A stretch of 64,000 bases of DNA from Clostridia bacterium (GTDB lineage: Bacteria; Bacillota; SHA-98; UBA4971): NCBI GenBank assembly GCA_050261175.1, contig JBLNDA010000059.1:6195-70194 (forward strand), written 5' to 3'. The translations under genes and the position numbers were made by a program. Shown here piece after piece: positions 42,024-56,541 of the stretch. Position 1 is the stretch's first letter, and the number at the start of each line of letters is the position of its first letter. The notes beneath the pieces were generated by a model. It searched no databases and was not told the DNA's origin. It saw only the letters and a program-made list of their open reading frames with translations.

Positions 42024-43001
42024 TCACGCGGGGCGCAGGAGCGAGTCTTCGATGTTCTCCACAACCCTTCCTGTTACGCGGAAGCCGGCCTCCTGGATTC
42101 CCAGAAGATACGCCCCCACCACAGGCGGAAACCTTGCCTCCACGACCTCGCACACCGGAGCCGCTTTTGCGAGCTCCCGGGCTAGGGCCTTTCTCACGAT
42201 GTCTCCCGCGGCGAACACACCTCCCGAGGTCACGCAGAGCACCGCGTCGTCCTGCATCCCGAGGGCCCTCACCACGCTCGCCGCCGCAAGACCGAGCTCG
42301 GCTCCCGCGCGGCGCAGTATTCGCAGCGCCACGCGGTCGCCCTTGCGGGCTGCTTCACCCACCACCACGGCCAGACCGGCTATGTCCGTTCGCCCCAGGC
42401 CCTTGCGGTACACCAGCTCCACCAGGTCATCCGGCGAGGCCGCCTTGAGATGCTGCAGCACAGCCTCGAAGAGCGCTGTGGGGTCGCCCCGGCCGTCGCT
42501 CGCCCTGACCACCGATAGGAGCGCTTGGCGTCCGATGTCGTATGCGCTGCCCTCGTCGCCCAGGAGGTAGCCCCAGCCGCCCGCCCGGGCCTTCTCTCCC
42601 TTCGAGTTCATGCCGAACGCAATCGAACCCGTGCCGGCTATCACCACCACGCCCGGCTGGCCCAACGTACCCGCGGCAAGCGCTATGACAGCGTCATTCT
42701 CCACCACGACCTTGCCGGCAATGCCTGCTCCCTGTAGAAGGGCCGCCACCTCTTGGCGGTCACCCGGCCTGTCCACGCCTGCGATGCCGGCGAACGCGAC
42801 GTCAAAAGCCTCGTCTCCAGCAGGCAGCAGGTTCCGTGCCCTTCCAATCGCAGCTGAGATCTCGGCCTTCACACCCGCCGGCCCCGAAACCTGGAAGTTA
42901 GCCGGACCCGCCCATGCCCGCGCCAGCACCTCGCCATGGATAGTTCCGACCAGGCAGTCTGTCTTCGTTCCGCCCGCATCTATCGCAATGACGAGCCCCA
43001 T
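42024..43001 (-). CDS. BadF/BadG/BcrA/BcrD-family sugar kinase (GlcNAc/MurNAc kinase-like)
   Basis: IDAGGTKT, ENDA, IAGTGS, GGWGYLLGDEGS. Confidence 0.88.
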   Translation of the reverse strand: MGLVIAIDAGGTKTDCLVGTIHGEVLARAWAGPANFQVSGPAGVKAEISAAIGRARNLLPAGDEAFDVAFAGIAGVDRPGDRQEVAALLQGAGIAGKVVVENDAVIALAAGTLGQPGVVVIAGTGSIAFGMNSKGEKARAGGWGYLLGDEGSAYDIGRQALLSVVRASDGRGDPTALFEAVLQHLKAASPDDLVELVYRKGLGRTDIAGLAVVVGEAARKGDRVALRILRRAGAELGLAAASVVRALGMQDDAVLCVTSGGVFAAGDIVRKALARELAKAAPVCEVVEARFPPVVGAYLLGIQEAGFRVTGRVVENIEDSLLRPA

Positions 43002-43179
43002 GTCGCCCCTCCCAGTCCCAAGCAGCGGCCTCTTGGTTCGTTGCGGCTTGCCACCATCCGGCGGGCCGGCGGTCCCTCCCTCTCCCGGGTCGCGAACCAC
43101 CCCCGGCAGCCGGGAGCGCTTTCGCGAAATGACCGCCGTCCTCGCGTATAGCGCCGTCTCTGTCTCAAATGTCAAAGTG

Positions 43180-44160
43180 TCAAAGGCACGTCTTCCACGT
43201 CTTCCAGAGCGTGTCCCTAACGCCCTGGTCCATCCCGACGCCCGCCAGGTCAAGGGCGAGGAGCACCGCTCCCAGCACGGGCGGGACCTCGAGCATGATG
43301 AACTCGGCCGCCGGGAATTCCACCAGGACACGGGTCTTGAGCGTGGCGGTCATCACGGGGTCGTCGTTTGCGAAGACCCCTCCCGACAGCACGACCTTAA
43401 CCTGTCCGTCGGGCGGGAACAGCTTGCGGAGCGCGGCGAGTATCGCTATGGCAAGCTCGTTCCCCACCTCCCGCAGAATGTCGCACGCCACCTCGTCGCC
43501 GCGGCGCGCGGCTTCGAACACCAAAGGGGCGAGGAACGCCACCTGCGCCCGCTCACCGGATCCAGGGTAGAACCGCTCCACGAGGTCGTCCAGGTTTCGG
43601 AGGTGGAGCTTCTCGCAAAGCATGTCATAGAGGACGGTGGGCTTGCCGCGGCCATCCCGACCGCGCGTCGCCATCCTGACGGCGAGCATGCCGATGTGGC
43701 TCGCGCCGGCGCCGTCCCCGAACATGTACCCGAGCCCCCCGACTTGCACCCGCTTGCCTTCACGGCTGAACCCGATTACGTTCGTGCCGGTGCCGCAGAC
43801 CGCCACCACGCCCACGCCGTCGACCGTGGCGGCCCTGAGCGCTATCGTCGCATCATTCTCCAGGCCCATCCGGGGCGCCGGGTTCATAGCAGCCAAGAAC
43901 TTCTCTATGATTGCGAAGTCTGCGGGGCGGTCGGCCCCCGCCATCCCGAAGAAGGCGGCCTGGAGACGGTCCGCCGTGACGCCCGCGGCGTCGAGCGCGA
44001 GATCGACGGCCTTCTTGACCTGCGCCCTCGCGAGCTCGACTCCCACCGCCTGAAAGTTGCCCGGGCCGGCCTTCCCCGCTCCGACCGCGTGTCCCGCCAT
44101 GTCGCTCACGAGCGCGATGGTCTTCGTGCCCCCCGCGTCGACACCCACCACGTAACTCAT
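43180..44160 (-). CDS. Second BadF-family sugar kinase
   Basis: VDAGGTKT, ENDA, VCGTGTN, GGLGYMFGDGAG. Confidence 0.88.
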   Translation of the reverse strand: MSYVVGVDAGGTKTIALVSDMAGHAVGAGKAGPGNFQAVGVELARAQVKKAVDLALDAAGVTADRLQAAFFGMAGADRPADFAIIEKFLAAMNPAPRMGLENDATIALRAATVDGVGVVAVCGTGTNVIGFSREGKRVQVGGLGYMFGDGAGASHIGMLAVRMATRGRDGRGKPTVLYDMLCEKLHLRNLDDLVERFYPGSGERAQVAFLAPLVFEAARRGDEVACDILREVGNELAIAILAALRKLFPPDGQVKVVLSGGVFANDDPVMTATLKTRVLVEFPAAEFIMLEVPPVLGAVLLALDLAGVGMDQGVRDTLWKTWKTCL

Positions 44161-45653
44161 CGCTCCGCCTCTTCCCTGGCCTGAGCCGCCTCGCCTTGCG
44201 CGCCGCCTCGGGCCCCTCCGCGGGCGAGGGCCGGAGCCAGCGCCTTGTTCCTGAACGGCCCGCCGGCGAGCCTCTGCCAGTACCCGGGTCTGTCGGAGAT
44301 GGCATCATACGAGAACAGCACCACACCCTCGGCCCTGAGGAGCCTCGCGATACCTATCTTCTCGATGCAGCCTTCCGGGTCCTCCAGCATGTTGTAGGCG
44401 CCCACCCCTGCCAGCACACGTCCGCCTCCCCGGCCGCGGGCGGCCTCCACCGCGTCCCGCACGTGCCTGGCAAAGAGGTCCCCATTGGACGTATATACCA
44501 TCGGAACCACAAAGTCAACGATCCCTCGCGAAAGCCAGGTCTTCCAATCCTGAAGTCTGCGCTCGGCCGCGTCGACGGCATCGGGGAATACGGCGCACGA
44601 CACGGCCACGCCGGGTTTCACCCGTTTGACGTCCTCGTACACGCGCCGGACGACCTCGGTAACCTGGTCGCGGCGGAACTCATTCCATTTCGCCACGAGC
44701 TCGCCGTGCAGCGCCTCCCCTTCCTTCCCCGCCCCACCTTGGACCGCCTCGGGACCTCTTGCGAGGTCGAGGGGGTCATACCCCGTGAGGTCGCGGAACG
44801 CACGCCTGGCCGCGTCTCCGTACCCGAACCTCGTGGAAGGATACCTGATGTAATCGAAATGCACCCCGTCGACGTCGTAATTCCGGACGACCTCCATGAA
44901 AACGCCACGGACGTACTCCTTCACACCCTCGATCGCTGGGTCGAGCATGGGGGACACGAGCTCGCCCTCGGCCATCTCTGGGGTGTAGTCGAGCGTCGAA
45001 ACGCCCGCTTCGTCCACGAGCGCCCACTCGGGGTGCCGGGAAAGCACGTGCCCCGGCGGGTACGCCTCGCGGCCGAGCTCCCCTACGGTGAACGCGTTGA
45101 TCCAGGCGTGCACCTGGAGACCGGCCTCGTGAGCCCGCTCGATGCAGAACGCGAGGGGATCGAAACCTTCGTCCACACGCGGCATCCTCGGCACGACGCT
45201 GCTTGTGTAATACGCCTCACCGCGCCCGTTCACCTGCACGAAGAGGGCGTTGAAGTTGCTCTTGGAGGCAATGTCCACCATCTTTTCCACCGAGCCCCTA
45301 GTCGCCATGCTCGTGCGGACCACCCACAAGCCTCTCACCTCGTGACCCGCCACCCACGCCGCGTCCGCCTGAGGCCTCATGAAAAGGCACACCGTCCCTC
45401 CTACGACGAAAATGGCAACAGCCATACAAACCCGGCGATGCTCCGGGCCTGCGGCTGTGAGTCTCGCGAATAGCCTCCTGACGACTGCGATGAAAGCAAA
45501 GAAGGCGTGCAGCCCCGCCTCGGACACAGAGGCAGGCCACCGCCGCCCGGTTGCAGCTTCCTTTCCCACGTCTCGCCTGCCTCCCCCGTCCCCACGCGCG
45601 AGCCTGCCGTCCGCCGGGACGCCGGAGCCGTTCCCAGGCGACATGCGGATCAA
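44157..45653 (-). CDS. Glycosyl hydrolase-like family 10 (GHL10, YddW/DigH-like), membrane-anchored; start uncertain
   Basis: EVRGLWV, FDPLA, VHAW, YDVDGVHFDYIRYP, QDW..W, PMVY. Confidence 0.85.
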   Translation of the reverse strand: MIRMSPGNGSGVPADGRLARGDGGGRRDVGKEAATGRRWPASVSEAGLHAFFAFIAVVRRLFARLTAAGPEHRRVCMAVAIFVVGGTVCLFMRPQADAAWVAGHEVRGLWVVRTSMATRGSVEKMVDIASKSNFNALFVQVNGRGEAYYTSSVVPRMPRVDEGFDPLAFCIERAHEAGLQVHAWINAFTVGELGREAYPPGHVLSRHPEWALVDEAGVSTLDYTPEMAEGELVSPMLDPAIEGVKEYVRGVFMEVVRNYDVDGVHFDYIRYPSTRFGYGDAARRAFRDLTGYDPLDLARGPEAVQGGAGKEGEALHGELVAKWNEFRRDQVTEVVRRVYEDVKRVKPGVAVSCAVFPDAVDAAERRLQDWKTWLSRGIVDFVVPMVYTSNGDLFARHVRDAVEAARGRGGGRVLAGVGAYNMLEDPEGCIEKIGIARLLRAEGVVLFSYDAISDRPGYWQRLAGGPFRNKALAPALARGGARGGAQGEAAQAREEAER

Positions 45654-46396
45654 ACCTCGGGCCTTTCCAGCTCCATGCGGACCTTTCCGCGCGACCGGAG
45701 GAAGTCCCTGATCCGCCCAGCGCTGGTGTTGAGCACGAGGTCCTCCGTGAGGCCGGCACGCTCCACAAGCTCCACTGCGGCCTCGAATACTCCAACCCGC
45801 GATGCGTGATGAGCGTCGCTCCCGATGACCACGGTTACTCCGTACGCGCCCGCGAGCCGGGCGAACCGGTGGCAGTTCTCCCGGCTGTCCAGCCTGACTA
45901 TGGTAAGGGACGAGTTGTTGATCTCAAGGAGCTTGCCCAGACGCTTCGCGGCCTTCACGACCTCCTCGATGTCCACCTGGAAGGCCGGGTTCCCGGGATG
46001 GGCGATGGCGTCCACATGAGGGTTCTCCATGGCGGCTATCATGGCCTTGGTATTCTCCTCGACCGTCCCTCCGTCGTAACCCGTGCCGACGTGAAACCCG
46101 GCGAGCACGAATTCCAACTTCTGCAGGACGCGGTCGGGGAGGTCCAGCTCGCCGCGGGGGCTGACTATGTTCACCTCAACCCCTTTGAGAACCTCCACTC
46201 CAGCGATGGTTGCGGGAATGACTCTCAGGTTGCCGAAGTAGTAGCGGTGCGGCCCGCCAGGGATGTTCGGCCCATGGTCGGTGACGGCTATCATTTCGAG
46301 CCCGGCGTCGCGGGCGGCGCGGGCCATCTCGTCGATGGTGTTGTAGGCGTGTCCGCTTGCAATGGAGTGAGTGTGGAGATCAGCAACGAGCCGCAT
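45650..46396 (-). CDS. PHP phosphatase (YcdX-like)
   Basis: DLHTHSIASGHAYNT, TDHG, HPGN, EINNSS, GSDAH. Confidence 0.9.
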   Translation of the reverse strand: MRLVADLHTHSIASGHAYNTIDEMARAARDAGLEMIAVTDHGPNIPGGPHRYYFGNLRVIPATIAGVEVLKGVEVNIVSPRGELDLPDRVLQKLEFVLAGFHVGTGYDGGTVEENTKAMIAAMENPHVDAIAHPGNPAFQVDIEEVVKAAKRLGKLLEINNSSLTIVRLDSRENCHRFARLAGAYGVTVVIGSDAHHASRVGVFEAAVELVERAGLTEDLVLNTSAGRIRDFLRSRGKVRMELERPEV

Positions 46397-46467
46397 TTCC
46401 GGGTCCTCCCAGGTTATGCCTATTCCAAATGTCGCGGCGCACACTCCAGTGCGCCACGAGAAGCAAT

Positions 46468-48219
46468 TCAACGCTGGGAAGCTGATCCCTGCTTTGCGGC
46501 GAACGCTGACGGATCGATATCCGGGAACACCGCGTCTATCGCCTCGATCTCCTCGAGGTACCTGGTGGTTTCCAGCGTTGCGCTCGGCCGCTCGAGGGCT
46601 TCGAGGAGCCGGGTGAACCTGCACTTGTGCTCGAGGAACCGGCGTGAGGCGTAGTCGGCCGCCTGCTCCGTCGTGACGAGGAACGGCCAGTCGCTGCTCT
46701 GAAGAAGCAACGCCTCGCGCGCAGCCTGACGGACGAGCCGCCCCTCGAGGTCCGGGGAATCCGGGGAGCGACCGGGGAACAGAGGCCCAGCGCAACGGCG
46801 GGTTCGCTGCTCACCGCGGCCTCCGCGATCTCCCGCGTGTCCAAGTGCCGCCGATATCCTCTCCATCTGCGCCTCTGCAGAGTGGATGTCGTCCCACATC
46901 CAGCCTGTGGCCTCGTTGTCCCAGATGTAATGGCCCCCTCCCATCCCCCAGGAGCTTTCCACGAGGTCCACCTCGCCTGCCGGTCGGTGGTTCTCCAGGT
47001 ACCGGGCGGCAGTCGTAAGTTCCACGCTCTCGCTGCGGGCAAGGCCCTCGAGAACACATCTGAGCCAGTCCAGCCCCTCCATCCACCAGTGACCGAAGAG
47101 CTCGACATCGAACGGGGCGACGATGACGCCGTGCTTCCCCGTGTCCCTGTGGAACTCCTCGAGAAGCCGCTCCACAAGGCCGACGAAATGGTCCGCGTGC
47201 TCTTTCGCCCGCCCCAGGGCGGCCTGCGGCTGGTAGATTTCCTTGGAGCCGAGGTCCACCAGTCTGCTGGTGACCTTCCAGTAACGAAAACCGGAAATGG
47301 AATCTCGTTTATGAAATTCCCTGTAGTTGCCATCGCCGGGATAGCCCCATTCGGACGACCACACCTGGAGGGCCGTTCTCTCGTTCCGCCCGAGGACCAG
47401 GAGGCCGCTGCTGGACACCGAGTACGGCAGGTACGTGGTGAACCCCGGTCTGGAAGGAATGTACCTGGGTACGGGTTGTTGTTGAGGAAACCTCGCCCCG
47501 TACATGCCGACAGGCGTCCCGCCCTGGATAGCGTGGGAATCTACGAAGAAATGCTTGATCCCCAAAGCCGTGAGGACCCCATCGATGCCTGCTGCCCCGA
47601 AGGCGGAGCCGGGTGGGCTGGAAGCCGAGTCGCGGGGACGGTACCCACATTCAGGCAACCATATCCCCAAGGGCTTTCTCCCGAAGCAACGTTCGTAGGT
47701 GTCGGACCCTATCTTCACCTGGGCATATACCGACGATTCCCTCGCCAAGAGCGGCAGGTAGGCGTGTGTCGCGGCTCCCGCCACGAGCTCGATGTGGCCT
47801 TGGTCCTGAAGAGAGCGGAAAGCCGCAATGAGGTTGCGCCGGTATCGCTCGTGGAAGCTCGTGCGGACGCGCTGGTACCGGTCCCGGTAGAACTTCGCGA
47901 GATCGCGGAAGCGTCCCTCGCTCTCCGCTTCGAACCTCGCGATATCTCCTTCGGCTGCGGCGATCTTCGTTTCCACGTACTCGTCGAAGCGAAAGAGCAT
48001 GTACGGATCCTGGAGCTGATCGAGCAGCACCGGCGTGAGCCCGACAGTCAGCTTCGCGGGGACGCCGTTTTCCACGAGATCCGAGATGATGTCGAGGAGC
48101 GGGATGTACGTCTCCGCCATCGCCTCGAACACCCATTCCTCGCCGAACGGCCAGACCCCGGCTTTCCTGCAATACGGCAGGTGGCTGTGGAGCACGAATA
48201 CGAACGCGCCTATTGACAC
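46468..48219 (-). CDS. GH57 1,4-alpha-glucan branching enzyme (with DUF1957 C-domain)
   Basis: HSHLP, WLPECGY, APFDVELFGHWW, LQSSDW. Confidence 0.9.
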   Translation of the reverse strand: MSIGAFVFVLHSHLPYCRKAGVWPFGEEWVFEAMAETYIPLLDIISDLVENGVPAKLTVGLTPVLLDQLQDPYMLFRFDEYVETKIAAAEGDIARFEAESEGRFRDLAKFYRDRYQRVRTSFHERYRRNLIAAFRSLQDQGHIELVAGAATHAYLPLLARESSVYAQVKIGSDTYERCFGRKPLGIWLPECGYRPRDSASSPPGSAFGAAGIDGVLTALGIKHFFVDSHAIQGGTPVGMYGARFPQQQPVPRYIPSRPGFTTYLPYSVSSSGLLVLGRNERTALQVWSSEWGYPGDGNYREFHKRDSISGFRYWKVTSRLVDLGSKEIYQPQAALGRAKEHADHFVGLVERLLEEFHRDTGKHGVIVAPFDVELFGHWWMEGLDWLRCVLEGLARSESVELTTAARYLENHRPAGEVDLVESSWGMGGGHYIWDNEATGWMWDDIHSAEAQMERISAALGHAGDRGGRGEQRTRRCAGPLFPGRSPDSPDLEGRLVRQAAREALLLQSSDWPFLVTTEQAADYASRRFLEHKCRFTRLLEALERPSATLETTRYLEEIEAIDAVFPDIDPSAFAAKQGSASQR

Positions 48220-48247
48220 GATGGCCCCTCCTCACTTGCACTTCATT

Positions 48248-48277
48248 TAGTTTGGGCTCCGGGGCGGCGTGGTATTC
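48248..48277 (-). promoter_or_regulatory. Putative sigG promoter of the first GH57 gene
   Basis: GAATA-N18-CAAACTA. Confidence 0.6.
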
Positions 48278-48421
48278 CCAGGCGTGGCGGCAAGTCGTCG
48301 CAGGTCACGGTGGCCGGCGACACGGTTCAGCGCGCGTGCGGCGCGACGCAGCGGGATGGGAGACGGGGCGGAACGAGGGTGCACTCGTTGCCGTTTCTGG
48401 CAAATCCACACAGCGGCCCTC

Positions 48422-48451
48422 GAATAAACGCCCAGGGCTCAAGGGATATTA
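48422..48451 (+). promoter_or_regulatory. Putative sigF/sigG promoter of DUF4912-GH57
   Basis: GAATA-N15-AGGGATATTA. Confidence 0.55.
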
Positions 48452-48531
48452 TTACAGAGATGTGGCGGAGCACATCCTGAAGCTCATTGCCTGACAAGGC
48501 GTTGCGATGCAATGAATGCCGGGAGGTAGCC

Positions 48532-49554
48532 GTGGTGGCGGCGATAGTTGACGAAACGAGATCATCGGGATCATCTGACGGGAACGTGAGCCAATCTGTC
48601 CTTGACGAGGAGATCGGTGGAAAAGCGACCGTTCGCAGCGAAGTGGAAGAAGTTCGTCTCCCGGAGAGCGTGTCAGAACTTCGAATCGTGGAGACGAGAG
48701 ACATCAACCTCGCCGAGGACATTGCCAACGCCGCCACGCACCCCATGTACACAGCCGGGACAGAGATGGAGGAGTACGAGCTTCCCCAAGGCTACGGCAC
48801 CACGAGGCTGGTCCTCATGGTGCGCGATCCCTTCTGGCTCCACGCTTACTGGGAGGTCGCCCAAGACGTGTCGGAGACCGTTACCGCGGCCTTGGGGCCG
48901 GACGGTTGGCGTGTCGCCAGAAAGACCCTTCGCGTGCACGACGTGACTGACGTGGAATTCGACGGAACCAACGCCCATCGCACGTTCGACATCGACATAA
49001 GCGGCGGTGCCAACAACTGGTACATCAACGTGGAGCGCCCGAACAGATCGTACTGCGCCGAGCTGGGCCTCGTGGGCCCCGACGGCCGGTTCGTGCTCCT
49101 TTCCAGATCCAACGTGGTCCGAACGCCTCGCGCCGGCCCGTCCGAGGTCATCGATGAAGAGTGGATGACCATCTCCGCCGTGGAGCGGTACTACCCACAC
49201 CCGGGGCGGCTGCCGTCGTCTCCGGAAATGGTTTCCGCTCGGCTGGAACACATGGCGTTGGAGATGGGGTCGGGTTTCGTCGCAGGTATCTCCAGCCCGG
49301 GGATGGGAGTGGCCGCCCCGGAACGAAAGGCTTTCTGGCTGAACGCCTCGGTCGAGGTAATCGTGCACGGCGCCACGGAACCCGGCTCCACTGTGACAAT
49401 CCAGGGCTCGCCCGTGAAGCTTCGCCCCGACGGCACCTTCTCCGCTAGGTTCCAGCTGCCTGACGGAGAGCAAGTCGTTCCCATTGAAGCCGTGTCCAAG
49501 GACGGTAGCATGAGGCGGTGCGTGACGACGAGACTCACCCGCAGCACCTGGTAG
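48532..49554 (+). CDS. DUF4912 domain protein
   Basis: ELPQGYG..LVLMVRDPFWLHAYWE, NWYI, RSNVVRTP, FWL..EVIVHGATEP..RPDGTF; GTG start with SD GGGAGG. Confidence 0.85.
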   Translation: MVAAIVDETRSSGSSDGNVSQSVLDEEIGGKATVRSEVEEVRLPESVSELRIVETRDINLAEDIANAATHPMYTAGTEMEEYELPQGYGTTRLVLMVRDPFWLHAYWEVAQDVSETVTAALGPDGWRVARKTLRVHDVTDVEFDGTNAHRTFDIDISGGANNWYINVERPNRSYCAELGLVGPDGRFVLLSRSNVVRTPRAGPSEVIDEEWMTISAVERYYPHPGRLPSSPEMVSARLEHMALEMGSGFVAGISSPGMGVAAPERKAFWLNASVEVIVHGATEPGSTVTIQGSPVKLRPDGTFSARFQLPDGEQVVPIEAVSKDGSMRRCVTTRLTRSTW

Positions 49555-49618
49555 GCCCGCCGAATGTACAGAACAGAGTAGACAACGCACAACGTAGACA
49601 GGGAGATGAAACCGGAAC

Positions 49619-51256
49619 ATGGCTCACGAGAAGGGTTACCTCGCGCTTGTCCTGCACGCGCACCTGCCGTACGTGAGGCACCCGGAACATCCTGATTTCC
49701 TCGAGGAGACGTGGCTCTTCGAAGCCATAACCGAGACGTACATCCCGCTCATCAAGGTGTTCCAGGGTCTCGTGCGCGACGGCATCGAATTCCGGATCAC
49801 CATGTCCATCACGCCGCCTCTCGCCTCGATGCTCCTCGATCCGCTCTTGCAAGAGCGGTACCTCCGCCACGTCGGGAAACTCATAGAACTCGCGGAGAAG
49901 GAAGTCGAGCGCACGAGGTGGCTTCCTGGGTTCAACGAGAACGCTAGGATGTACCGGGACCGCTTCTACGAGGCCCGCCACGTTTTCGAGGACGTGTACG
50001 GCCGGAACATCCTCACGGCGTTCAAGGAGCTTGAAGCCCGGGGGCGACTGGAGATCATCACTTCCGGCGCGACTCATGGGTACCTCCCGCTCATGGAGAT
50101 CTGTCGGGAAGCCGTGCGCGCCCAGATAAACGTCGCCGCGGATTTCCACGAGCGGGCCTTTGGGAGGAGGCCGACCGGCTTCTGGCTGCCTGAGTGCGGG
50201 TACAATCCAGGGGACGACTGGTTCCTGAAAGAACACGGCATCAGGTACTTCATCACCGACGCCCACGGCGTGCTCCTCGCCTCGCCTAGGCCCAGGTACG
50301 GGGTCTTCGCGCCCGTGTACTGCGAGTCTGGTGTCGCGGCGTTCGGGCGGGACATGGAATCGTCGAAGCAGGTGTGGAGCGCACGCGAGGGCTACCCGGG
50401 GGACTACGACTACCGCGAATTCTACAGGGACATCGGCTACGATCTGGATTACGACTACATCCGCCCGTACATACATCCGAGCGGCACGAGGATCAACACG
50501 GGAATAAAGTATTACAGGATCACCGGAAAGACCCACGACAAGGAACCCTACAACCGTCAGCGGGCGCTCGAGAAAGCCGCGATTCACGCCGGCAACTTCA
50601 TGTTCAACAGAGAAAAGCAGATAGAGTACCTCGCTTCCGTCATGGACCGCAAGCCCATCGTCGTGGCCCCGTACGACGCTGAGCTCTTCGGCCATTGGTG
50701 GTTCGAGGGGCCGGAATGGCTCGATTTCCTTATAAGGAAGACCGCCTGTGACCAGAAGACCATCGCCCTTACCACTCCCGGCGATTACCTCGGCGTGTAC
50801 AGGCGCAACCAGGTGTCCACTCCATCTCTCTCGAGCTGGGGGTACAAGGGCTACAATGAGGTGTGGCTGGAGGGGTCCAACGACTGGATATACCGGCACC
50901 TGCACAGGGCGGCCGAGAGAATGGTGGAGCTGGCGCGGACCTACCCCGCCGCCGACGGCCTCCTGCGTCGCGCCCTGAACCAGGCGGCGCGGGAGCTTCT
51001 CCTGGCCCAAAGCAGCGACTGGGCGTTCATCATGAAAACCGGCACGATGGTGTCGTACGCAGTGCGCAGGACGAAGGAGCACGTCTGGCGCTTTACCAAG
51101 CTCTACCATGACATACGCAGCGGGGCCATCGACGAACCGTGGCTGGCCGAGATCGAGTACAGGGACAACATCTTCCCTCACATCGATTATCAGGTTTACG
51201 CCGGCGGGGCGCGCACGGCGGCCGCCACCGCCGCAACCGCAGCGGCAGGCGCATGA
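49619..51256 (+). CDS. GH57 1,4-alpha-glucan branching enzyme (second paralog)
   Basis: HAHLP, WLPECGY, APYDAELFGHWWFEG, AQSSDW. Confidence 0.92.
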   Translation: MAHEKGYLALVLHAHLPYVRHPEHPDFLEETWLFEAITETYIPLIKVFQGLVRDGIEFRITMSITPPLASMLLDPLLQERYLRHVGKLIELAEKEVERTRWLPGFNENARMYRDRFYEARHVFEDVYGRNILTAFKELEARGRLEIITSGATHGYLPLMEICREAVRAQINVAADFHERAFGRRPTGFWLPECGYNPGDDWFLKEHGIRYFITDAHGVLLASPRPRYGVFAPVYCESGVAAFGRDMESSKQVWSAREGYPGDYDYREFYRDIGYDLDYDYIRPYIHPSGTRINTGIKYYRITGKTHDKEPYNRQRALEKAAIHAGNFMFNREKQIEYLASVMDRKPIVVAPYDAELFGHWWFEGPEWLDFLIRKTACDQKTIALTTPGDYLGVYRRNQVSTPSLSSWGYKGYNEVWLEGSNDWIYRHLHRAAERMVELARTYPAADGLLRRALNQAARELLLAQSSDWAFIMKTGTMVSYAVRRTKEHVWRFTKLYHDIRSGAIDEPWLAEIEYRDNIFPHIDYQVYAGGARTAAATAATAAAGA

Positions 51257-51284
51257 CCCGTCGAAGCACCTGGGACGGCCGGGG

Positions 51285-53765
51285 TCACGTGGCCCTGATC
51301 TCGTCGATCTTGGCCATGTACATCTCGCGGAGGGTCTCCGCGTCGGCGGGTGTGGAAGCCTCGCTGTACACGTGGAAGAGCGGCTCCTCGGAATCAGGCA
51401 GGATCAGCGCCCAGCCGGTGTCGTGGTATACCTTGATCCCGTCGATCAGCTCCACCTTCTCGCTGCGCACCTGCTCGATGAGCATGCGCATGACCTTGCC
51501 CTTGTCCTCCCACGGGCACTCTACCGTTCGCTTGCTCATGTAGAACCTGGGCACCATGGAGAGCAACGATGAGAGGCGCGCGTTCTCCGCGGCCATGACC
51601 TCGAGGATCTTGGCTAGGGACAATAGCGCGTCGAAGGCCGGCTGGAAGCCGGGAAGCTCCTTCTCTCCGATGAGGATCTTCTCCTCGATCACTTTCTCCA
51701 TGACGGACCTCGGGTTCGTCCGGGTACGAACCACGTGGCCGCGGTAATTCCTCGCCATCTCCTCGATGATCCTCGGCGCAGTCACCGGCACGGCCACGGT
51801 GGCACCCTCCCTGGACTTGAGAATGAGGAGGGACATCAAGGCACAGAACATCTCCTCGGAGACGCCCTTGCCCTGCTCGTCCACGAGTAGGAGCCTCTCG
51901 GCGTTGGCGTCCACGGCTATGCCGAGGTCAGCGCGGCTTGCGACCACGGCTTTCGAGAGGAGCGAGAGAGAGTCGAGCATCTCGTAGTGGTTCCTCGGCC
52001 TGGCGGCAACGGCGTTATCGGGGTTCAGCGCAAGCACGTCGCACCCGAGGGCGTCCAGGAGCGTCGGGAGGAGGAGGGAGAGGTTCCCCGGGTCGAAATC
52101 CACGACCACCTTGAAGCGCCGGGCCCGCACGGTGGCGACGGACACCGCCTTGAGGAGGCCGTCCAGGTACTGTTCGACGACCCGTGTGAGGAAGGCGACC
52201 TCGCCGATGTCCTCCGTATCCACGCGCCGGAAGTCCTCGCTGAAGAAGGCGTTTTCGATCTTGCGTTCCATGGATCTATCGATGTTGATGCCTTGTTCGT
52301 CCAGGAACTCGATGAGCCCGATGTTCGGGTCGTAAGGAGAAAGCCTCACGTGGAGGCCGCCCGCGACACCCAGGGCAGCGACGGCGTGGCGGGTGACGGG
52401 GGTGGTCATACGCCCGATGTCGTACACGTTGGTGCCGCTGGAGAGAAGTCCCGCCGTGATCGCGCGTTTCAGCATCCGCGGAGGCTTGTACGCGTCGGAA
52501 CTCACCACGATCGCCCGCTTTTCGCCGAGACACGCGCCGTACGCGGCGCCCAGTTTCGCCGCAAATTCGGGGGTGAGTTCCACGTTGAGGAGGCCGGACA
52601 CGCCGTACGACCCGAAAAGCCTCCTGGACCACTTCGCGCCCCAGACCAGGCTGGTGGTGATGGTGGTGCCGGCGTCGATGATCTTGTTGGGCCATATCTT
52701 CACGCCTGGCTTGATGATGCTCCGCTCCCCGATGGAGCAATCCGCCCCGACCACGGATCCCTCGAAGAGGGCGGTCTTCGCCTTGATGCTCGCCCTCGAA
52801 CACACTATGGCGCCGCGCAGCTCCGTTTCCTTCCCCACGTAGGAGTTGTTCCAGATTATGCTCCTCTTCACTGACGCCCCCTCATTGAGAAGGTTCTGGT
52901 GGCCGATGGTCGTGCCGTCCCCCACCTCCGCGTTGCGCTTCACGCGACAACAATCACCGATTACGACAGGCGGTATGAGCCGAGCGTTCGGGTGGATCTC
53001 CGCCCCCGCTCCGATGTACACGCCCTTCTCCACTTCCTCGCCGGGTATGTCCACCTTGGCGCGGCCTTCCAAGATGTCGTAGTGGGTTTGGCGGTACTGC
53101 TCGATGGTCCCGATATCGCTCCAGTAGCCGCTCGCGACGTATCCGAAGAGGGGGAGCCTTCTCTTGAGGATGAGCGGGAACAGGTTCTTGGAGAAGTCGA
53201 ACTCCTGCCCGAAGTCTACGAAGCCCAGCACTTCAGGCTCGAGCACGTAGATGCCGGTATTGACCGTATCGCTGAACACTTCGCTCCAGCTCGGCTTCTC
53301 GAGGAAGCGCGCTATGCGCCCATCGTCGTCGGTGATCACGACGCCGTATTCCAACGGAGTCGCCACCCGGGCGAGGACGATCGTGGCTATGGCGCCCTTC
53401 GCCCTGTGAAACTCGAGCGCCTCCGCGAGGTCGAAGTCGGTGAGGGCGTCGCCGCTGATGACGAGGAACGTTGAGTCGAGGTGCTCTTCACACGCCTTGA
53501 CGCTTCCGGCTGTGCCGAGGGGGACGTCCTCCACCGAGTAGTGCATGGTGACCCCGAAAGACTCGCCCGTGCCGAAATGATCTTGGATCACCTCCGGCAT
53601 ATAGTGGAGAGTGGCATAGACGTCCGTGAACCCGTGCTTGCGCAGGAGCCGCACGATGTGCTCGAGGATGGGCCTGCCCACCACCGGCACCATGGGCTTG
53701 GGTCTGTCGCACGTGAGCGGACGAAGGCGCGTGCCCTTTCCGCCTGCCATCACCACGGCTTTCAT
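51285..53765 (-). CDS. Sugar-1-phosphate nucleotidyltransferase / left-handed beta-helix / phosphohexomutase fusion
   Basis: [27 protein letters not shown], hexapeptide repeats, LFGSYGVSG mutase start. Confidence 0.9.
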
Positions 53766-53985
53766 CTCACTCGAACCTCCAGACCAGGCAATGGTGTGAG
53801 CACCCGGCGCAAAGCGCCGGGTCAGAGATTGCTGCTTCGCGCCTTGACAGACAGAATCCGGCCCCTTCGCCCGTCAGGCGTCGCCCGTCAGGCGGGCGCC
53901 CGGATCTCGACATCCCTCGCGCAATCACCGGCAACCCAGCAACTACTGGAAAACGCGCGAGAGCGAACGCACCCTCACTTGGCAC

Positions 53986-55257
53986 TCAGTGCGCACCTTC
54001 CGGCACCCGGTAGCGCGAGTAATCCTGAGGCGCCTCGGCGGCCTGCGCGAACCAGCGCGGACCCGCCACCGCCCATGGGCTCGAGCGGTAGGCGGTGAGC
54101 ACTTCATCGTAGACCGCCATCGTGCTGCCAGCTATTACGTCCCAGTTGAACCTCTCCCGGACCTCTTGACCGGCCGCTTCGCGGATTCGCTCGCGGAGCC
54201 TGTCGTCGCCGAGGAGGGTCAGGATGTTGTCCGCAAGGGAACCGGGATTCGACACCCAGGCCTTCATGCCGGTGATGCCGTGACTCACGACCTCGCCGAG
54301 CCCGCCCGTATCGGACACCACCACGGGCACGCCGCACGCCATGCCCTCGAGCGCGGTGATTCCGAAGGGTTCGTACAGACTGGGCACGACCGCGACGTCG
54401 GCGCATTTGTACAGGCGGTTGCGCGTCTCGTCGTCCACGAAACCGGCGAAATAGATGCGCTGGTATATCCCGAGCGACTGCGCGAGATGCCTGAGGTAGG
54501 AGTCGGCGGGCCCTTTTCCTGCTATGACGAGTTTGGCCTTGTCGTAGTACGCGAGGACCTTCGCAAAGGCCTCGATGAGGACGTGGACGCCCTTTTCGTG
54601 GACAAGCCTGCCGATGAAGAAGATGATCTTCTCGTCGGGCGCCGCCCACCGCGACCGGAACGGGGCAAGGTCCTCGCCCTCAGGAACCTCGAACCTCATG
54701 GGGTCCACCCCGTTCGGGATCACGTGCACCTTGTCAGCGGGGAACTGAAAGACCCACGAGAGCTCGCCGCGCATATACTCGCTGCAGCATATGACGCGCC
54801 ATGCCTCGAAGCCGAGCCACCACTCGACGCTGCTGATGTACCGCTGTAGATCGTTGTGGAGCCCCCAGTTGCGGCCGTACTCGGTCGCGTGAATAGTGGC
54901 GACGAGCGGGAGCCTGAGCGCGTGCTTCAGCGTCTTTGCAGCGTAGGCGGTGACCCAGTCGTGAGCGTGTACGAGGTCGGCCCCTTGAGCTGCTTGGGGA
55001 ATAGCGCGCTCCAGGAGGCTCAAGTTCATCTGCATGACCCATGTGACGAAATCCGGCGGGGACGGGCTGCCGAGGGGCACCCTGAAGACCCTGACACCCG
55101 AATCGTCTCCCACTTCTTCAGCGCCGTCGGCGGCCAAGGTGACGACGTCCGCATGCACGCCCTGCCGCACGAGGGCTTTGGAGAGATCCTGTACGTGGCG
55201 GGCGATCCCCCCGACTACCCTCGGCGGGTACTCCCACGAAAGCATAAGAACACGCAT
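53986..55257 (-). CDS. Glycosyltransferase family 4 (glycogen-synthase-like)
   Basis: SWEYPP..GG, HAHDW, TIHATE, GRLVHEKG, YEPFGITALE. Confidence 0.9.
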   Translation of the reverse strand: MRVLMLSWEYPPRVVGGIARHVQDLSKALVRQGVHADVVTLAADGAEEVGDDSGVRVFRVPLGSPSPPDFVTWVMQMNLSLLERAIPQAAQGADLVHAHDWVTAYAAKTLKHALRLPLVATIHATEYGRNWGLHNDLQRYISSVEWWLGFEAWRVICCSEYMRGELSWVFQFPADKVHVIPNGVDPMRFEVPEGEDLAPFRSRWAAPDEKIIFFIGRLVHEKGVHVLIEAFAKVLAYYDKAKLVIAGKGPADSYLRHLAQSLGIYQRIYFAGFVDDETRNRLYKCADVAVVPSLYEPFGITALEGMACGVPVVVSDTGGLGEVVSHGITGMKAWVSNPGSLADNILTLLGDDRLRERIREAAGQEVRERFNWDVIAGSTMAVYDEVLTAYRSSPWAVAGPRWFAQAAEAPQDYSRYRVPEGAH

Positions 55258-55302
55258 CTCGTCCCCTCCCATTCCTCGCCCTGGGAACGCGTTCCATGCT
55301 CT

Positions 55303-55331
55303 TATGATTCGCGGTTGGACGCAGATTATTC
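55303..55331 (-). promoter_or_regulatory. Possible sigG/sigF promoter of the GT4 operon
   Basis: GAATA-N17-AATCATA (weaker match). Confidence 0.35.
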
Positions 55332-55482
55332 GTGTCGTGGCTCGGCGGCCGCGCTGTCACTCGGGCAAGCCTGGGCCGCTCGGCGCAACAGCCCGCGGCC
55401 GAACGCGATGACCCGCACACGGAGGTCCGCCGGCGTCGCCTCCGGACGGTGGCGGCGAACCTGAAGGAAGACCGCTAATCAC

Positions 55483-56541
55483 CTAATCGCCGTACGCATG
55501 ACACCGGACGAGGCGCCGGGAATCAACTGACACGAGCTCGGGCCGGGAGACGTCACAGCGGGGCCCGCGCAGCTCACACCGGGGAGCGAAACCACAGCCG
55601 GGCCCGAGGGTGGCAAGGTCCGGGACCTCGCCCATGATCGGCGTGAGCGGCTTCCGCTCGCCCAGGCGCGGGATGGAACGCAGGAGCCCCTGCGTATAGG
55701 GGTGCATCGGTTCCTCCAACACCGCGCCGGTGGGCCCCTGCTCCATGATCTGGCCCGCATACATGACCGCCACCTCGCGGCAGAACTCCGCCGCAACCGC
55801 AAGGTCGTGAGTCACCAGCACGATGGCCGTCCCGGTGGCCTCGTTGATCTCGCGCATGAGATCCAGCACCTGGGCTTGAACCGTTACGTCCAGCGCCGTG
55901 GTGGGCTCGTCCGCGAGCAGGATCTTCGGCTTGCACGCAAGCGCTATCGCTATGAGGATGCGCTGCTGCATTCCCCCGCTGAACTGGTGAGGATACTCGA
56001 GGTGCCTGGTCTCGGGCGACGGGATCCCCACCTTTCGCATGAGGTCGGTGACGATTTCGCGCTCCCGCGCTCGACTCACGCGCGCAAGGCTCGCCGGGAA
56101 CCGCGGGAGAAACCCGTGAACCCGAAGGGATTCAGCTATCTGGTCCCCCACCCTGAACGCGGGGTTGAGGGTGGTCATGGGGTCCTGGAACACCATGGCG
56201 ATATCCCTGCCCCGCACCTCCCGCATCGCCCCGGGACCCAGCTTCATGAGGTCCCGGCCCTCGAAAACGACGCTTCCTGCTACGACCCGCCCTGGATGGG
56301 GCACCAATCGCATTATCGAAAGGAGCGTGGCGCTCTTGCCGCAACCTGACTCCCCTACGATGGCAAGCAAGTCCCCTTCTTCGAGCGTCAAGCTTACGCT
56401 CCGCACCGCCTGGACATCGCCCCGGGCGGTGGGGTACACAGTGGACAAGCCGGACACCTGGAGCACAGCGCGGCCGCTCCGGCCGGCAGGCCGAATCTCC
56501 TCGTCTCCCGGCTCGACGCCTGTCGTCTGCAACGCATGCAA
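55483..56541 (-). CDS. Peptide ABC transporter ATPase (OppD/DppD)
   Basis: GESGCGKS, FSGGMQQR, DEPTTALD, HPYT, C-terminal Cys motif. Confidence 0.93.
   Translation of the reverse strand: MHALQTTGVEPGDEEIRPAGRSGRAVLQVSGLSTVYPTARGDVQAVRSVSLTLEEGDLLAIVGESGCGKSATLLSIMRLVPHPGRVVAGSVVFEGRDLMKLGPGAMREVRGRDIAMVFQDPMTTLNPAFRVGDQIAESLRVHGFLPRFPASLARVSRAREREIVTDLMRKVGIPSPETRHLEYPHQFSGGMQQRILIAIALACKPKILLADEPTTALDVTVQAQVLDLMREINEATGTAIVLVTHDLAVAAEFCREVAVMYAGQIMEQGPTGAVLEEPMHPYTQGLLRSIPRLGERKPLTPIMGEVPDLATLGPGCGFAPRCELRGPRCDVSRPELVSVDSRRLVRCHAYGD

Follow-up and report, generated by a model that had tools for sequence, protein, structure and literature searches.

In the present study, we analyzed a 64,000-nt stretch of DNA from an uncultured, spore-forming Clostridia bacterium (hereafter, the window), in which the first-pass annotation had described five clustered genes in three transcription units. 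The gene families were confirmed by Pfam and NCBIfam searches, and the layout was supported (Table 1). The full cluster was syntenic in genera g1 and g3 and in families f2 and f3. For the DUF4912 gene, the GTG at 48532, with a GGGAGG ribosome site ahead of it, was the likelier start.

Table 1. Genes, putative promoters, and a conserved block at the locus (window coordinates).
Feature	Position	Strand	Assignment or sequence
BadF/BcrAD-type ATPase (N-acetylglucosamine-kinase-like)	43180-44160	-	Pfam BcrAD_BadFG, 136 bits
GHL10 (glycosyl-hydrolase-like 10) protein	44157-45653	-	Pfam GHL10, 145.7 bits
YcdX/PRK09248-type PHP-domain phosphoesterase	45650-46396	-	NF006702, 302.6 bits (cut-off 264)
GH57A	46468-48219	-	Pfam Glyco_hydro_57 and BE_C
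Putative GH57A-unit promoter, sigma-G type	48248-48277	-	GAATA-N18-CAAACTA
Conserved block	48391-48413	+	CCGTTTCTGGCAAATCCACACAG, directly upstream of the DUF4912 -35 box
Putative DUF4912-GH57B-unit promoter, sigma-F type	48422-48451	+	GAATA-N15-AGGGATATTA
DUF4912 gene	48487-49554 (ORF); likelier start 48532	+	Pfam, 138 bits (cut-off 29.4)
GH57B	49619-51256	+	GH57 enzyme, AmyC type (loop-less)
Fusion gene	51285-53765	-	Pfam NTP_transferase, LbH, PGM/PMM I-III
GT4 retaining glycosyltransferase	53986-55272	-	Pfam Glycos_transf_1, Glyco_transf_4, partial Glyco_transf_5
Putative GT4-fusion-unit promoter, sigma-G type	55303-55331	-	GAATA-N17-AATCATA

The ATG of the PHP gene (46396) is preceded by GGGAGG and lies 71 nt past the GH57A stop, and the two genes are probably co-transcribed. 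Since GHL10 and the BadF/NagK-like ATPase follow, the GH57A unit probably comprises more than one gene. Of 16 relatives' loci with a GH57A orthologue and enough room, 15 had PHP next after GH57A. GHL10 is peripheral to the unit; it followed PHP in the loci of genus g1 and was missing from those of the sister genus g3. The ATPase ORF overlaps the end of the GHL10 ORF by 4 nt, and its homologue followed GHL10 in 8/8 genus loci. With 112 bits to NCBIfam NagK_SO3507, under the cut-off of 370, it may be a sugar kinase, encoded last in the unit.

According to the alignments, GH57A belongs to the loop-bearing 'true' glycogen-branching type. Its nearest solved relatives were the branching enzymes of Pyrococcus horikoshii (5wu7, 452 bits), Thermococcus kodakarensis (3n8t, 443 bits), and Thermus thermophilus (3p0b, 401 bits), with which it shares the catalytic motifs (WLPEC and D-ELFGHWW), the beta5-6 stretch, the loop Tyr, and BE_C. 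It differs from them in a 37-residue insertion ahead of the C-terminal helices and in a loop about 10 residues longer, and it is a candidate branching enzyme. This loop exceeds by about 10 residues the 17-22 residues given as the optimum in the part of PMC9291813 drawn on here. GH57B aligned over its full length with Thermotoga maritima AmyC (2b5d, 562 bits), which represents the loop-less class that accounts for most GH57 'glycogen branching enzymes'. Aligned to 5wu7, it had deletions at both the beta5-6 site and the flexible-loop site and kept the catalytic motifs, which assigns it to the loop-less AmyC type as judged by homology. In the portions of the sources used, AmyC was studied alone (PMC6616209), and AmyC-type enzymes were strongly hydrolytic and only weakly branching in vitro (PMC6616209; PMC9291813). 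Unlike AmyC, GH57B has a DUF4912 gene and a forespore-type promoter ahead of it, and its predicted partner is DUF4912; a DUF4912 match exists also in the T. maritima control genome.

The DUF4912 protein consists of a disordered acidic N-terminus, a DUF4912 beta-sandwich core, a linker, and a C-terminal beta-sandwich with a weak Pfam Glucodextran_B match. In the AlphaFold2 model, the confident domains spanned residues 85-205 and 270-340 (pLDDT ~90), and Foldseek matched them to FN3/Ig-like folds only. The proposal that DUF4912 acts as a GH57 partner was strengthened by both gene order and structure prediction. GH57B followed DUF4912 in 29/30 relatives' loci, the 30th ending at a contig edge, and in 68 of the 76 public loci with room. 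The model of GH57B with DUF4912 residues 70-340 scored 0.91, while the best of three controls scored 0.01; contact agreement between runs was at least 39% and partner pLDDT at least 72. In our benchmark, 58/80 solved complexes and 2/110 mismatched pairs reached the mark that this model passed, counts that hold only roughly for this pair because its alignments were self-made. No solved sequence relative of DUF4912 was found, so the model had no complex to recall. The predicted interface involved the invariant residues of DUF4912 and, on GH57B, residues 197 and 215-230, which are its deletion sites.

The N-terminal half of the fusion protein was nearest to the solved UTP--glucose-1-phosphate uridylyltransferase 8x7s (230.7 bits) and the C-terminal half to the phosphogluco/phosphomannomutases 9du5 and 1wqa; no NCBIfam model scored above cut-off for the fusion. 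GT4, a candidate glucan or oligoglucan synthase by sequence, scored under the cut-offs of all named NCBIfam families, its best model being glgA_Coryne (177.9 bits; cut-off 302.4). Its nearest solved relatives were MshA (115 bits), GlgM (108 bits), and Pyrococcus abyssi GlgA (86 bits). MshA and GlgM do not make polymers.

A GAATA-led motif ahead of each unit had been reported, and all three were present at the positions listed in Table 1; that of DUF4912 can also be read as GAATA-N18-GATATTA. Sigma types were assigned by the usual consensus letters of sigma factors F, G, E, K, and H. We searched the source genome, a 2.78-Mb metagenome-assembled genome (86% complete), for the loose motif G.ATA-N17/18-.A...TA. 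It was observed that 110 matches occurred on both strands, and that 23 of 2141 crude gene calls, made with a GC3-based ORF picker, carried the motif within 200 nt upstream. Three of these 23 were the units of the cluster, whose motifs are more than chance. The loose motif is nevertheless unspecific: the other 20 bearers included 15 annotated genes, of which just three were recognisable sporulation genes (spoIVB, a member of the YtfJ family, and one with a Germane domain), and it also preceded rpoB, dnaG, secA, priA, tsaE, and rpsG. A scan for sigma-70-type sites returned none in the three intergenic regions and three elsewhere in 43000-56000, against 1.7 expected. One metatranscriptome contained part of the window, as six short low-depth contigs without ends.

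In all three intergenic regions, the -35 and -10 boxes formed conserved islands across relatives. On the GH57A side of its spacer, GAATA and.A.ACTA were the sole conserved islands in 9/9 genus genomes; the sister genus carried GAATA-N18-TACACTA (5/5 loci), and two distant loci that were read (L144 and L173) carried GGATA-N17-AACAATA. The GH57A spacers of f2 and L104 contained no recognisable motif. The DUF4912 promoter was kept in 9/9 genus genomes, appeared as GTATA-N15-AG[GA]GATATTA in the sister genus (6/6 loci), and took the form [AT]CATA-N18-AATACTA in two other families of the class (4/4 loci). The block CCGTTTCTGGCAAATCCACACAG, possibly a regulator site, was almost invariant in 9/9 genus genomes and was not seen in the sister genus. 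Ahead of GT4, G[A/G/C]ATA-N17-AATCATA was present in 8/9 genus genomes despite a differing upstream neighbour gene, the block being lost in G002, and the promoter was found in two of three readable sister-genus loci. More distant forms were GCATA-N18-GATCATA in f2 (2/2 loci), GCATA-N17-AATTATA or AAACATA in L173, L184, and L179, and GCATA-N18-CATGCTA in L150. Although the spacers turn over, the boxes persist beyond the genus, being kept in the sister genus, in families elsewhere in the class, and in clusters with no more than 43-50% identity. Among 80 public loci, 33/35 Bacillota-titled ones (3.5 expected from shuffles) had the motif in the 500 nt ahead of DUF4912, as did 2/45 others (4.9 expected). 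The sigG gene was present in 5/5 sampled genomes of the Bacillota-titled group and in 0/5 of the other group.

The same layout was found at forespore promoters of the source genome. Five SASP genes carried [G/A/T]CAT.-N17/18 followed by GAGACTA, AACACTA, AATCATA (twice), or TACACTA. Their -35 boxes thus read.CAT. rather than GAATA, and the -10 box of the GT4 promoter is identical to that of two of them. In B. subtilis and C. difficile, sigma G controls the SASP genes and their expression is limited to the forespore, according to the part of PMC3789829 drawn on here. The spoIVB promoter read GCATA-N17-CAGGGTA, 50 nt upstream, and the sigG promoter read GAATA-N15-GGCAATACT, a layout shared with the DUF4912 promoter. 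Judged on these SASP, spoIVB, and sigG examples, forespore-regulon promoters (sspA, spoIVB, sigG) have the same -35/-10 layout as the cluster. SigG scored above cut-off in the source genome and sigG was found in 22/22 class genomes. One SigF-like gene lay behind spoIIAA/AB-like ORFs, SigE and SigK were present, and a second SigB/F/G-family gene was not found in the source genome. Collectively, the forespore-type architecture claimed at the outset was borne out as conserved across genera, restricted among DUF4912 loci to those titled Bacillota, and similar to the genome's own forespore promoters. The portions of the literature surveyed did not single out any alpha-glucan enzyme as part of the forespore regulon.

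The cluster had further been proposed to act instead of glgABC as a self-contained route. The first part stood for two genes, as GH13 glgB and glgC above cut-off were each found in 0/19 class genomes searched; it failed for GT5 glgA, which was above the curated cut-off in the source genome and in 19/19 class genomes. 'Self-contained' found no support, since the genome also contains a paralogous GT4-GH57-fusion operon. This operon was without the forespore-type motif and carried instead a conserved GGAAGGATAC-N12-(T)GTCGAAC block, whose TGTCGAA we take to be Spo0A-box-like. GH57B, fusion, and GT4 occurred together in 16/80 public loci, all Bacillota- or Firmicutes-titled; across Bacillota, DUF4912-GH57B often occurred without GT4 and fusion.

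Based on these results, we lean, with somewhat better than even confidence, towards an alpha-glucan (glycogen-type) enzyme module that is conserved in endospore-forming Bacillota and whose three units are most likely read by forespore sigma factors. The mutase/nucleotidyltransferase fusion would convert hexose phosphate to hexose-1-phosphate, and this to an NDP-sugar, probably UDP- or ADP-glucose, from which GT4 would extend an alpha-glucan or oligoglucan. The loop-bearing GH57A would introduce alpha-1,6 branches, and the loop-less GH57B would act as a heterocomplex with DUF4912, which is predicted to dock where the GH57B class lacks the flexible loop and beta5-6 strands. The promoter types suggest early forespore expression of DUF4912-GH57B (sigma F) and late forespore expression of GH57A-PHP and GT4-fusion (sigma G). 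GT5 GlgA and the paralogous operon, which lie elsewhere in the genome, would presumably act in vegetative or pre-divisional cells. In this scheme, we infer the sigma factors that read the promoters, the sugar specificity, the polymeric nature of the product, and its placement within the spore.

The presence of GT5 GlgA means that the GH57 enzymes could simply branch and trim its glucan in growing or stationary cells, with boxes that are dual-use or read by another sigma factor and nothing forespore-specific. With GT5 glgA in 19/19 and GH13 glgB in 0/19 of the class genomes searched, GH57 must indeed supply branching for any glycogen; the DUF4912-GH57B pair also occurs widely in phyla that do not sporulate, among them Omnitrophota and Planctomycetota, and the loose motif precedes housekeeping genes too. 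We nevertheless regard such an ordinary glycogen cluster as quite improbable. The DUF4912-upstream motif is confined to Bacillota-titled loci (33/35 against 2/45), the three units retain their boxes at N17/18 or N15 despite changing spacer sequences, no sigma-70-like site occurs in these spacers, no SigB gene able to read the GGG-rich -10 was found, and the paralogous operon has a different conserved block.

Forespore expression might also serve to remodel or mobilise glucan that the pre-divisional cell passed on, or to equip the spore with enzymes for germination, with no new spore store. The largely hydrolytic activity of AmyC-type enzymes in the reports drawn on here (PMC6616209; PMC9291813), the early sigma-F-type promoter of DUF4912-GH57B together with its frequent separation from GT4 and fusion, and the TGTCGAA block of the paralogous operon, which would fit glucan synthesis at sporulation onset, are consistent with this. 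In the source lineage, however, the complete NDP-sugar-forming fusion and GT4 also stand behind forespore-type promoters, an arrangement that argues for synthesis within that compartment, and we rate this reading as rather unlikely. Similarly doubtful is that the product of GT4 and fusion is a small glucoside or a short oligoglucan, such as a maltose-1-phosphate-type intermediate or protective solute, on which the GH57 enzymes act. The low glgA_Coryne score of GT4, the ranking of MshA and GlgM above archaeal GlgA, and the conserved PHP phosphoesterase favour a small product, as does the possible maltose-1-phosphate synthase role of GT4 'GlgA' homologues described in the consulted part of the review PMC11046441, where GT4 roles within glycogen clusters are said to need clarification. 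Against it stand the two tightly linked GH57 branching-type enzymes with intact catalytic motifs and the absence of an MGLP-type methyl- or acyltransferase next to the cluster.

In mycobacteria, Rv3031 (GH57) and Rv3032 (GT4) take part in methylglucose lipopolysaccharide (MGLP) synthesis. The cluster likewise pairs GH57 with GT4, a likeness at the level of family, but contains no methyltransferase or acyltransferase in or beside it. The glycogen operon glgBCDAP of Bacillus subtilis, under mother-cell sigma E, also ties glycogen-type metabolism to sporulation. It uses GH13, GT5, and GlgC/D, whereas the cluster uses GH57, GT4, and the fusion, and its compartment is the mother cell, whereas that predicted for the cluster is the forespore. 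The three cluster promoters resemble those read only within the developing spore, a sign that some spore-formers may build or remodel a sugar polymer in the spore itself.

Pfam and NCBIfam agreed on the five genes that the first-pass annotation had assigned to a putative alpha-glucan cluster, and its three GAATA-led motifs lay exactly where it had placed them. The window, with a G+C content of 63%, lay on contig C59 of a MAG of 2.78 Mb in 133 contigs that was 86% complete.

Features of the putative alpha-glucan cluster (window positions)
Feature	Position	Strand	Description
GH57A	46468-48219	-	Glyco_hydro_57 + BE_C (Pfam/NCBIfam)
GH57A promoter	48248-48277	-	GAATA-led motif
Block CCGTTTCTGGCAAATCCACACAG	48391-48413		23 nt, directly upstream of the DUF4912 -35 box
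DUF4912-GH57B promoter	48422-48451	+	GAATA-led motif
DUF4912 ORF	48487-49554	+	Pfam/NCBIfam
GH57B	49619-51256	+	Pfam/NCBIfam
Fusion	51285-53765	-	NTP_transferase + left-handed beta-helix + PGM/PMM I-III (Pfam/NCBIfam)
GT4	53986-55272	-	Pfam/NCBIfam
GT4-fusion promoter	55303-55331	-	GAATA-led motif

The promoter form of sigma F is GYATA-N15-GG..A.A.T., and that of sigma G is G.AT.-N17/18-CA...TA. With the consensus taken from these forms, the cluster promoters were found to combine a G.ATA -35 box with.A...TA at N17/18 or GG..A.A.T at N15, like members of the forespore regulon in the same genome. Five SASP genes carried GCATT-N18-GAGACTA, ACATA-N17-AACACTA, ACATA-N18-AATCATA, TCATA-N17-AATCATA and ACATG-N17-TACACTA, respectively; spoIVB carried GCATA-N17-CAGGGTA, 50 nt upstream, and sigG carried GAATA-N15-GGCAATACT. 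In B. subtilis and C. difficile, expression of SASP genes depends on sigma G and is confined to the forespore (PMC3789829). The -10 box of the GT4 promoter was identical to that of two SASP genes, and the GH57A promoter had the.A.ACTA form seen in the three other SASP genes. The DUF4912 promoter shared its register with the sigG promoter and also with GTATA-N15-GG[C/T]AATATTA, which stood before DUF4912 in many other Bacillota. On comparative evidence, the reading of the cluster promoters as probable forespore promoters is well supported.

Other sigma factors were considered as readers of these sites. A consensus scan revealed no sigma-70-type site in the three cluster spacers. For the DUF4912 promoter, a sigma H reading was rejected because no AGGA box stood at the right distance, and a sigma B reading was rejected because no SigB gene was found; a search for a second SigB/F/G-family gene in the genome able to read the GG-rich -10 box was likewise negative. 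The region upstream of sigK showed no clear sigma-E or sigma-K box and was dropped as a mother-cell comparator. By genotype, the organism is a spore-former: it encoded SigG (508 bits, over the curated cut-off), SigE, SigK and one SigF-like protein, the last behind spoIIAA/AB-like ORFs, together with the five SASP genes, spoIVB and two Spo0A matches. Two separate genes contained a full Spo0A C-terminal domain, at G000:C20:69183-69494 (140 bits; G000 is the genome of the window), adjoining spoIVB, and at G000:C51:7207-7521 (106 bits). Among the best 80 of 414 relatives in public records, the closest were titled Bacillota or Firmicutes MAGs.

Conservation of the promoter motifs across relatives, which the first-pass annotation had proposed as a check, was observed for at least some of the units at every distance compared, from the genus and the sister genus to further families and clusters only 43-50% identical. 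The genus comparison covered nine genomes, with DUF4912 proteins 75-89% identical to that of the window. The spacer between GH57A and DUF4912 ranged from 227 to 474 nt in the genus and was unalignable apart from the boxes, of which GAATA...(.A.ACTA) was kept on the GH57A side and CTCGAATAA...GCAAGGGATATTATTACAGAGA on the DUF4912 side. In the GT4 spacer, G[A/G/C]ATA-N17-AATCATA was kept in eight of the nine genomes despite a differing upstream neighbour gene. In one genus member (G002, contig C43, locus L089), the region upstream of GT4 had been replaced and the conserved promoter block lost, with the coding genes intact. The sister genus, with about 60% protein identity and a much lower G+C content, carried GAATA-N18-TACACTA before GH57A (5/5 loci), GTATA-N15-AG[GA]GATATTA before DUF4912 (6/6) and GAATA-N17-AATC[A/C]TA before GT4 (2/3 readable loci). 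Two further families of the class had [A/T]CATA-N18-AATACTA before DUF4912 at all four loci and no recognisable motif in their GH57A spacers; GCATA-N18-GATCATA preceded GT4 at both loci of the family f2. Among the 43-50% identical clusters, G.ATA-N17/18-.A...TA stood before DUF4912 in L144, L173, L179, L184 and L150, before GH57A in L144 and L173, and before GT4 in L173, L184, L179 and L150. The boxes and their spacing persisted while the spacer sequence turned over, as expected where a single sigma factor reads a promoter. The 23-nt block CCGTTTCTGGCAAATCCACACAG was nearly invariant in 9/9 genomes of the genus but missing from the sister genus, and is possibly a regulator site.

The loose motif G.ATA-N17/18-.A...TA matched 110 times genome-wide. 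Of 2141 crude gene calls, 23 had a match in the 200 nt upstream, and three of these were the units of the cluster. The motif was not a clean regulon predictor. Among the 15 annotated genes with the motif outside the cluster, the only sporulation-type ones were spoIVB and the YtfJ-family and Germane-domain genes, and housekeeping genes (rpoB, dnaG, secA, priA, tsaE and rpsG) carried it too. Genome-wide regexes were rejected as a regulon predictor, as the sporulation-type genes they returned outside the cluster were only spoIVB, YtfJ, Germane-domain and YetF/DUF421 genes. Because these results were mixed, our case rests on conservation and not on motif counts alone. The best sigma-G-type matches of the genome, GAATA-N18-CATACTA and GAATA-N18-CACACTA, stood back to back between divergent YetF/DUF421 and polyprenyl synthetase genes (G000:C92:21767-23994), and a YflT-domain gene (G000:C20:55142-55699) lay behind GAATA-N18-CAAACTA, the same boxes as those of the GH57A promoter. 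An RNA run (X1, share 0.09) yielded six contigs of 174-266 nt at a depth of 2-6.5 on GH57A, DUF4912, GH57B and the fusion; it was set aside as evidence of expression or habitat, since it gave neither starts nor strand and might reflect DNA carry-over.

The DUF4912 promoter motif was taxonomically restricted. From the 414 DUF4912 relatives in the species-representative genome collection, we kept the best 80 loci and divided them on the basis of record titles alone. Within 500 nt upstream of DUF4912, the loose motif occurred at 33 of the 35 loci titled Bacillota, Firmicutes or Aneurinibacillus, against 3.5 expected from mononucleotide shuffles, and at 2 of the 45 other loci, against 4.9 expected; both of the latter spacers had 34-35% G+C. 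L117 and L123, the Bacillota-titled loci without a match, were [A/T]CATA variants, which the pattern excludes by demanding G at the first position. The sigG gene was present in 5/5 sampled genomes of the Bacillota-titled group, in 0/5 of the other group and in 22/22 genomes of the class.

Alignment of GH57A to 5wu7 and 3n8t indicated that the catalytic Glu in WLPEC and the catalytic Asp in D-ELFGHWW were kept (giwlpecgyrp, apfdvelfghww). PMC9291813 describes true GH57 branching enzymes as having beta5-6 strands and a flexible loop tipped by a Tyr, the optimal loop length being 17-22 residues. In GH57A, the beta5-6 region aligned, as did the Tyr of the loop (mYGa versus vYGe), with a loop about 10 residues above that optimum. 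These features suggested that GH57A is of the loop-bearing "true" glycogen branching type, a predicted alpha-1,6 brancher. GH57B was closely similar over its whole length to AmyC of T. maritima (2b5d, 562 bits), and its gaps against 5wu7, at residues 201-202 and around 228, corresponded to the beta5-6 and loop sites; on this alignment it is an AmyC-type, loop-less GH57. Both proteins fell under the NCBIfam equivalog cut-offs, with 536.6 (GH57A) and 341.6 (GH57B) versus 1000 bits for branch_enz_Thcocales and 501.8 and 315.6 versus 920 bits for branchenz_Thermus.

The nucleotidyltransferase half of the fusion was nearest, among solved structures, to a UTP--glucose-1-phosphate uridylyltransferase (230.7 bits), and the mutase half to archaeal-type phosphogluco/phosphomannomutases. 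The fusion is not confined to spore-formers, since a locus of a candidate division WOR-1 record outside Bacillota (L174) carried DUF4912, GH57B and the fusion on one strand. GT4 scored under every curated NCBIfam cut-off, the best being TIGR02149 glgA_Coryne of the GT4 glycogen synthase/GlgM family (177.9 versus 302.4 bits); its nearest solved relatives were MshA, GlgM and a sucrose-phosphate-synthase-like protein, with archaeal GlgA further off. We infer from its neighbours that GT4 would make alpha-1,4-glucan. The 220-nt spacer between GT4 and the fusion was dropped as a fourth promoter; its length in the genus ranged between 33 and 270 nt, and we therefore treated the two genes as one unit. 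Past GH57A, a PHP phosphoesterase gene followed after 71 nt (ATG at 46396; 302.6 bits versus the PRK09248/YcdX-type cut-off of 264), with GHL10 next and a BadF/NagK-like ATPase after it; on its other side, the cluster was flanked by an Opp-type ABC transporter. These neighbours set the cluster apart from the mycobacterial MGLP locus (Rv3030-Rv3037c type), and no methyltransferase or acyltransferase was found beside its GH57 and GT4 genes. Taken together, a pathway from sugar phosphate to NDP-sugar, glucan and branches is plausible from the gene content, the GT4 step being the weakest.

The DUF4912 protein matched PF16258 with 138.1 bits (gathering cut-off 29.4). It probably starts at GTG 48532, behind GGGAGG; the residues before this codon were not conserved in the sister genus. 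The gene lay 5' of a same-strand GH57B-type gene at 29 of 30 relatives' loci, the thirtieth ending at a contig edge, and at 68 of the 76 public loci with room among the best 80 of 414 relatives. Of the eight public exceptions, one was a Margulisiibacteriota locus, two were titled Alcaligenaceae and five were of Planctomycetota type. The AlphaFold2 model (mean pLDDT 65) contained two domains at about 90, both beta-sandwiches, with disordered linkers. Foldseek returned only generic FN3/Ig-like sandwiches, the ESM Atlas search only other DUF4912 clusters, and the PDB sequence search no solved relative, so the assignment of a function from the fold was dropped. In a literature search judged by titles and abstract openings, the papers mentioning DUF4912 did not concern this protein, and the Petrotoga paper contained no text on gene neighbours.

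Prediction of a DUF4912-GH57 complex, another check named in the first-pass annotation, gave a positive result for GH57B. The model of GH57B with DUF4912 residues 70-340 scored 0.91, the best of three controls scored 0.01, at least 39% of contacts agreed between runs, and the partner pLDDT was at least 72. The 0.91 mark was reached by 58/80 solved complexes and 2/110 mismatched pairs, a calibration that is rough here because our own alignments were used. The modelling supports binding of DUF4912 to GH57B. The predicted interface involved the invariant DUF4912 residues R98, D99, P100, Y106, S193, N194, P199, S204, D208 and W211, and GH57B residues 197 and 215-230, the sites at which the beta5-6 strands and most of the loop are missing in enzymes of the AmyC type. 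As the interface coincides with these deletions, DUF4912 may act as a lid supplied in trans to the loop-less GH57B. The predicted complex bears on a GH57 question left open in PMC9291813, which states that 92% of about 2500 GH57 branching-enzyme sequences are without the flexible loop and beta5-6 strands, that those assayed showed low or no branching, being nearly inactive alone, and that their in vivo role is unknown. The lack of such a trans lid, if the proposal is right, would explain the poor activity of this 92% of catalogued "branching enzymes" when assayed alone.

The first-pass annotation had described the cluster as standing in place of glgABC, which held for glgB and glgC and failed for glgA. 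A GT5 glgA on contig C68 scored 573 bits, over the cut-off, and the gene was present in 19/19 class genomes; the cluster does not stand in for glgA. A GalT-like/DUF4921 gene lay directly before this glgA and a pyruvate-formate-lyase-like glycyl-radical enzyme gene after it (G000:C68:7903-10527), and no glgC or glgB lay beside it. The remainder of the classical GlgC-GlgA-GlgB pathway was not found: the best genome matches were 68 bits for GH13 glgB (cut-off 464) and 125 bits for glgC (cut-off 425), and none of the 19 class genomes had either gene over the cut-off. This left GH57 as the sole branching family observed, with the fusions as the only candidate source of NDP-glucose.

Sporulation-linked glycogen metabolism is known from the mother cell or the pre-divisional cell, as in the sigma-E-controlled glg operon of B. 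subtilis and in clostridial granulose. A literature search found no description of this type of cluster. Model organisms would have missed it, since the GH13 glgB and glgC searches matched in the B. subtilis control genome. We regard the cluster as a known type of system in a new regulatory form, with a predicted, unstudied enzyme-partner pair. If the reading is true, the biology of the spore compartment would gain a carbohydrate polymer from a conserved alpha-glucan module with forespore-type promoters; the polymer could fuel germination as an energy reserve, protect the spore by forming a glass, or reflect the use of inherited glucan. It is a tentative proposal, which we hold to be rather improbable in this general form, that many non-model endospore-forming Bacillota build or remodel branched alpha-glucan in the developing spore through forespore-specific isozymes, with DUF4912 as the trans lid of a loop-less GH57.

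A paralogous operon was found elsewhere in the genome (G000:C37:2846-9030), the GT4, GH57A-type and fusion genes of which were 48%, 40% and 44% identical to those of the cluster, respectively; it contained neither DUF4912 nor GH57B. Its upstream region carried no forespore-type motif. In seven genus genomes, this region kept the block GGAAGGATAC-N12-(T)GTCGAAC, which resembles a Spo0A box and a sigma-H layout, and, further upstream, TATTGTTTACTACATCGA. Separate control of two isozyme sets would be consistent with one serving the pre-divisional cell and the other the forespore.
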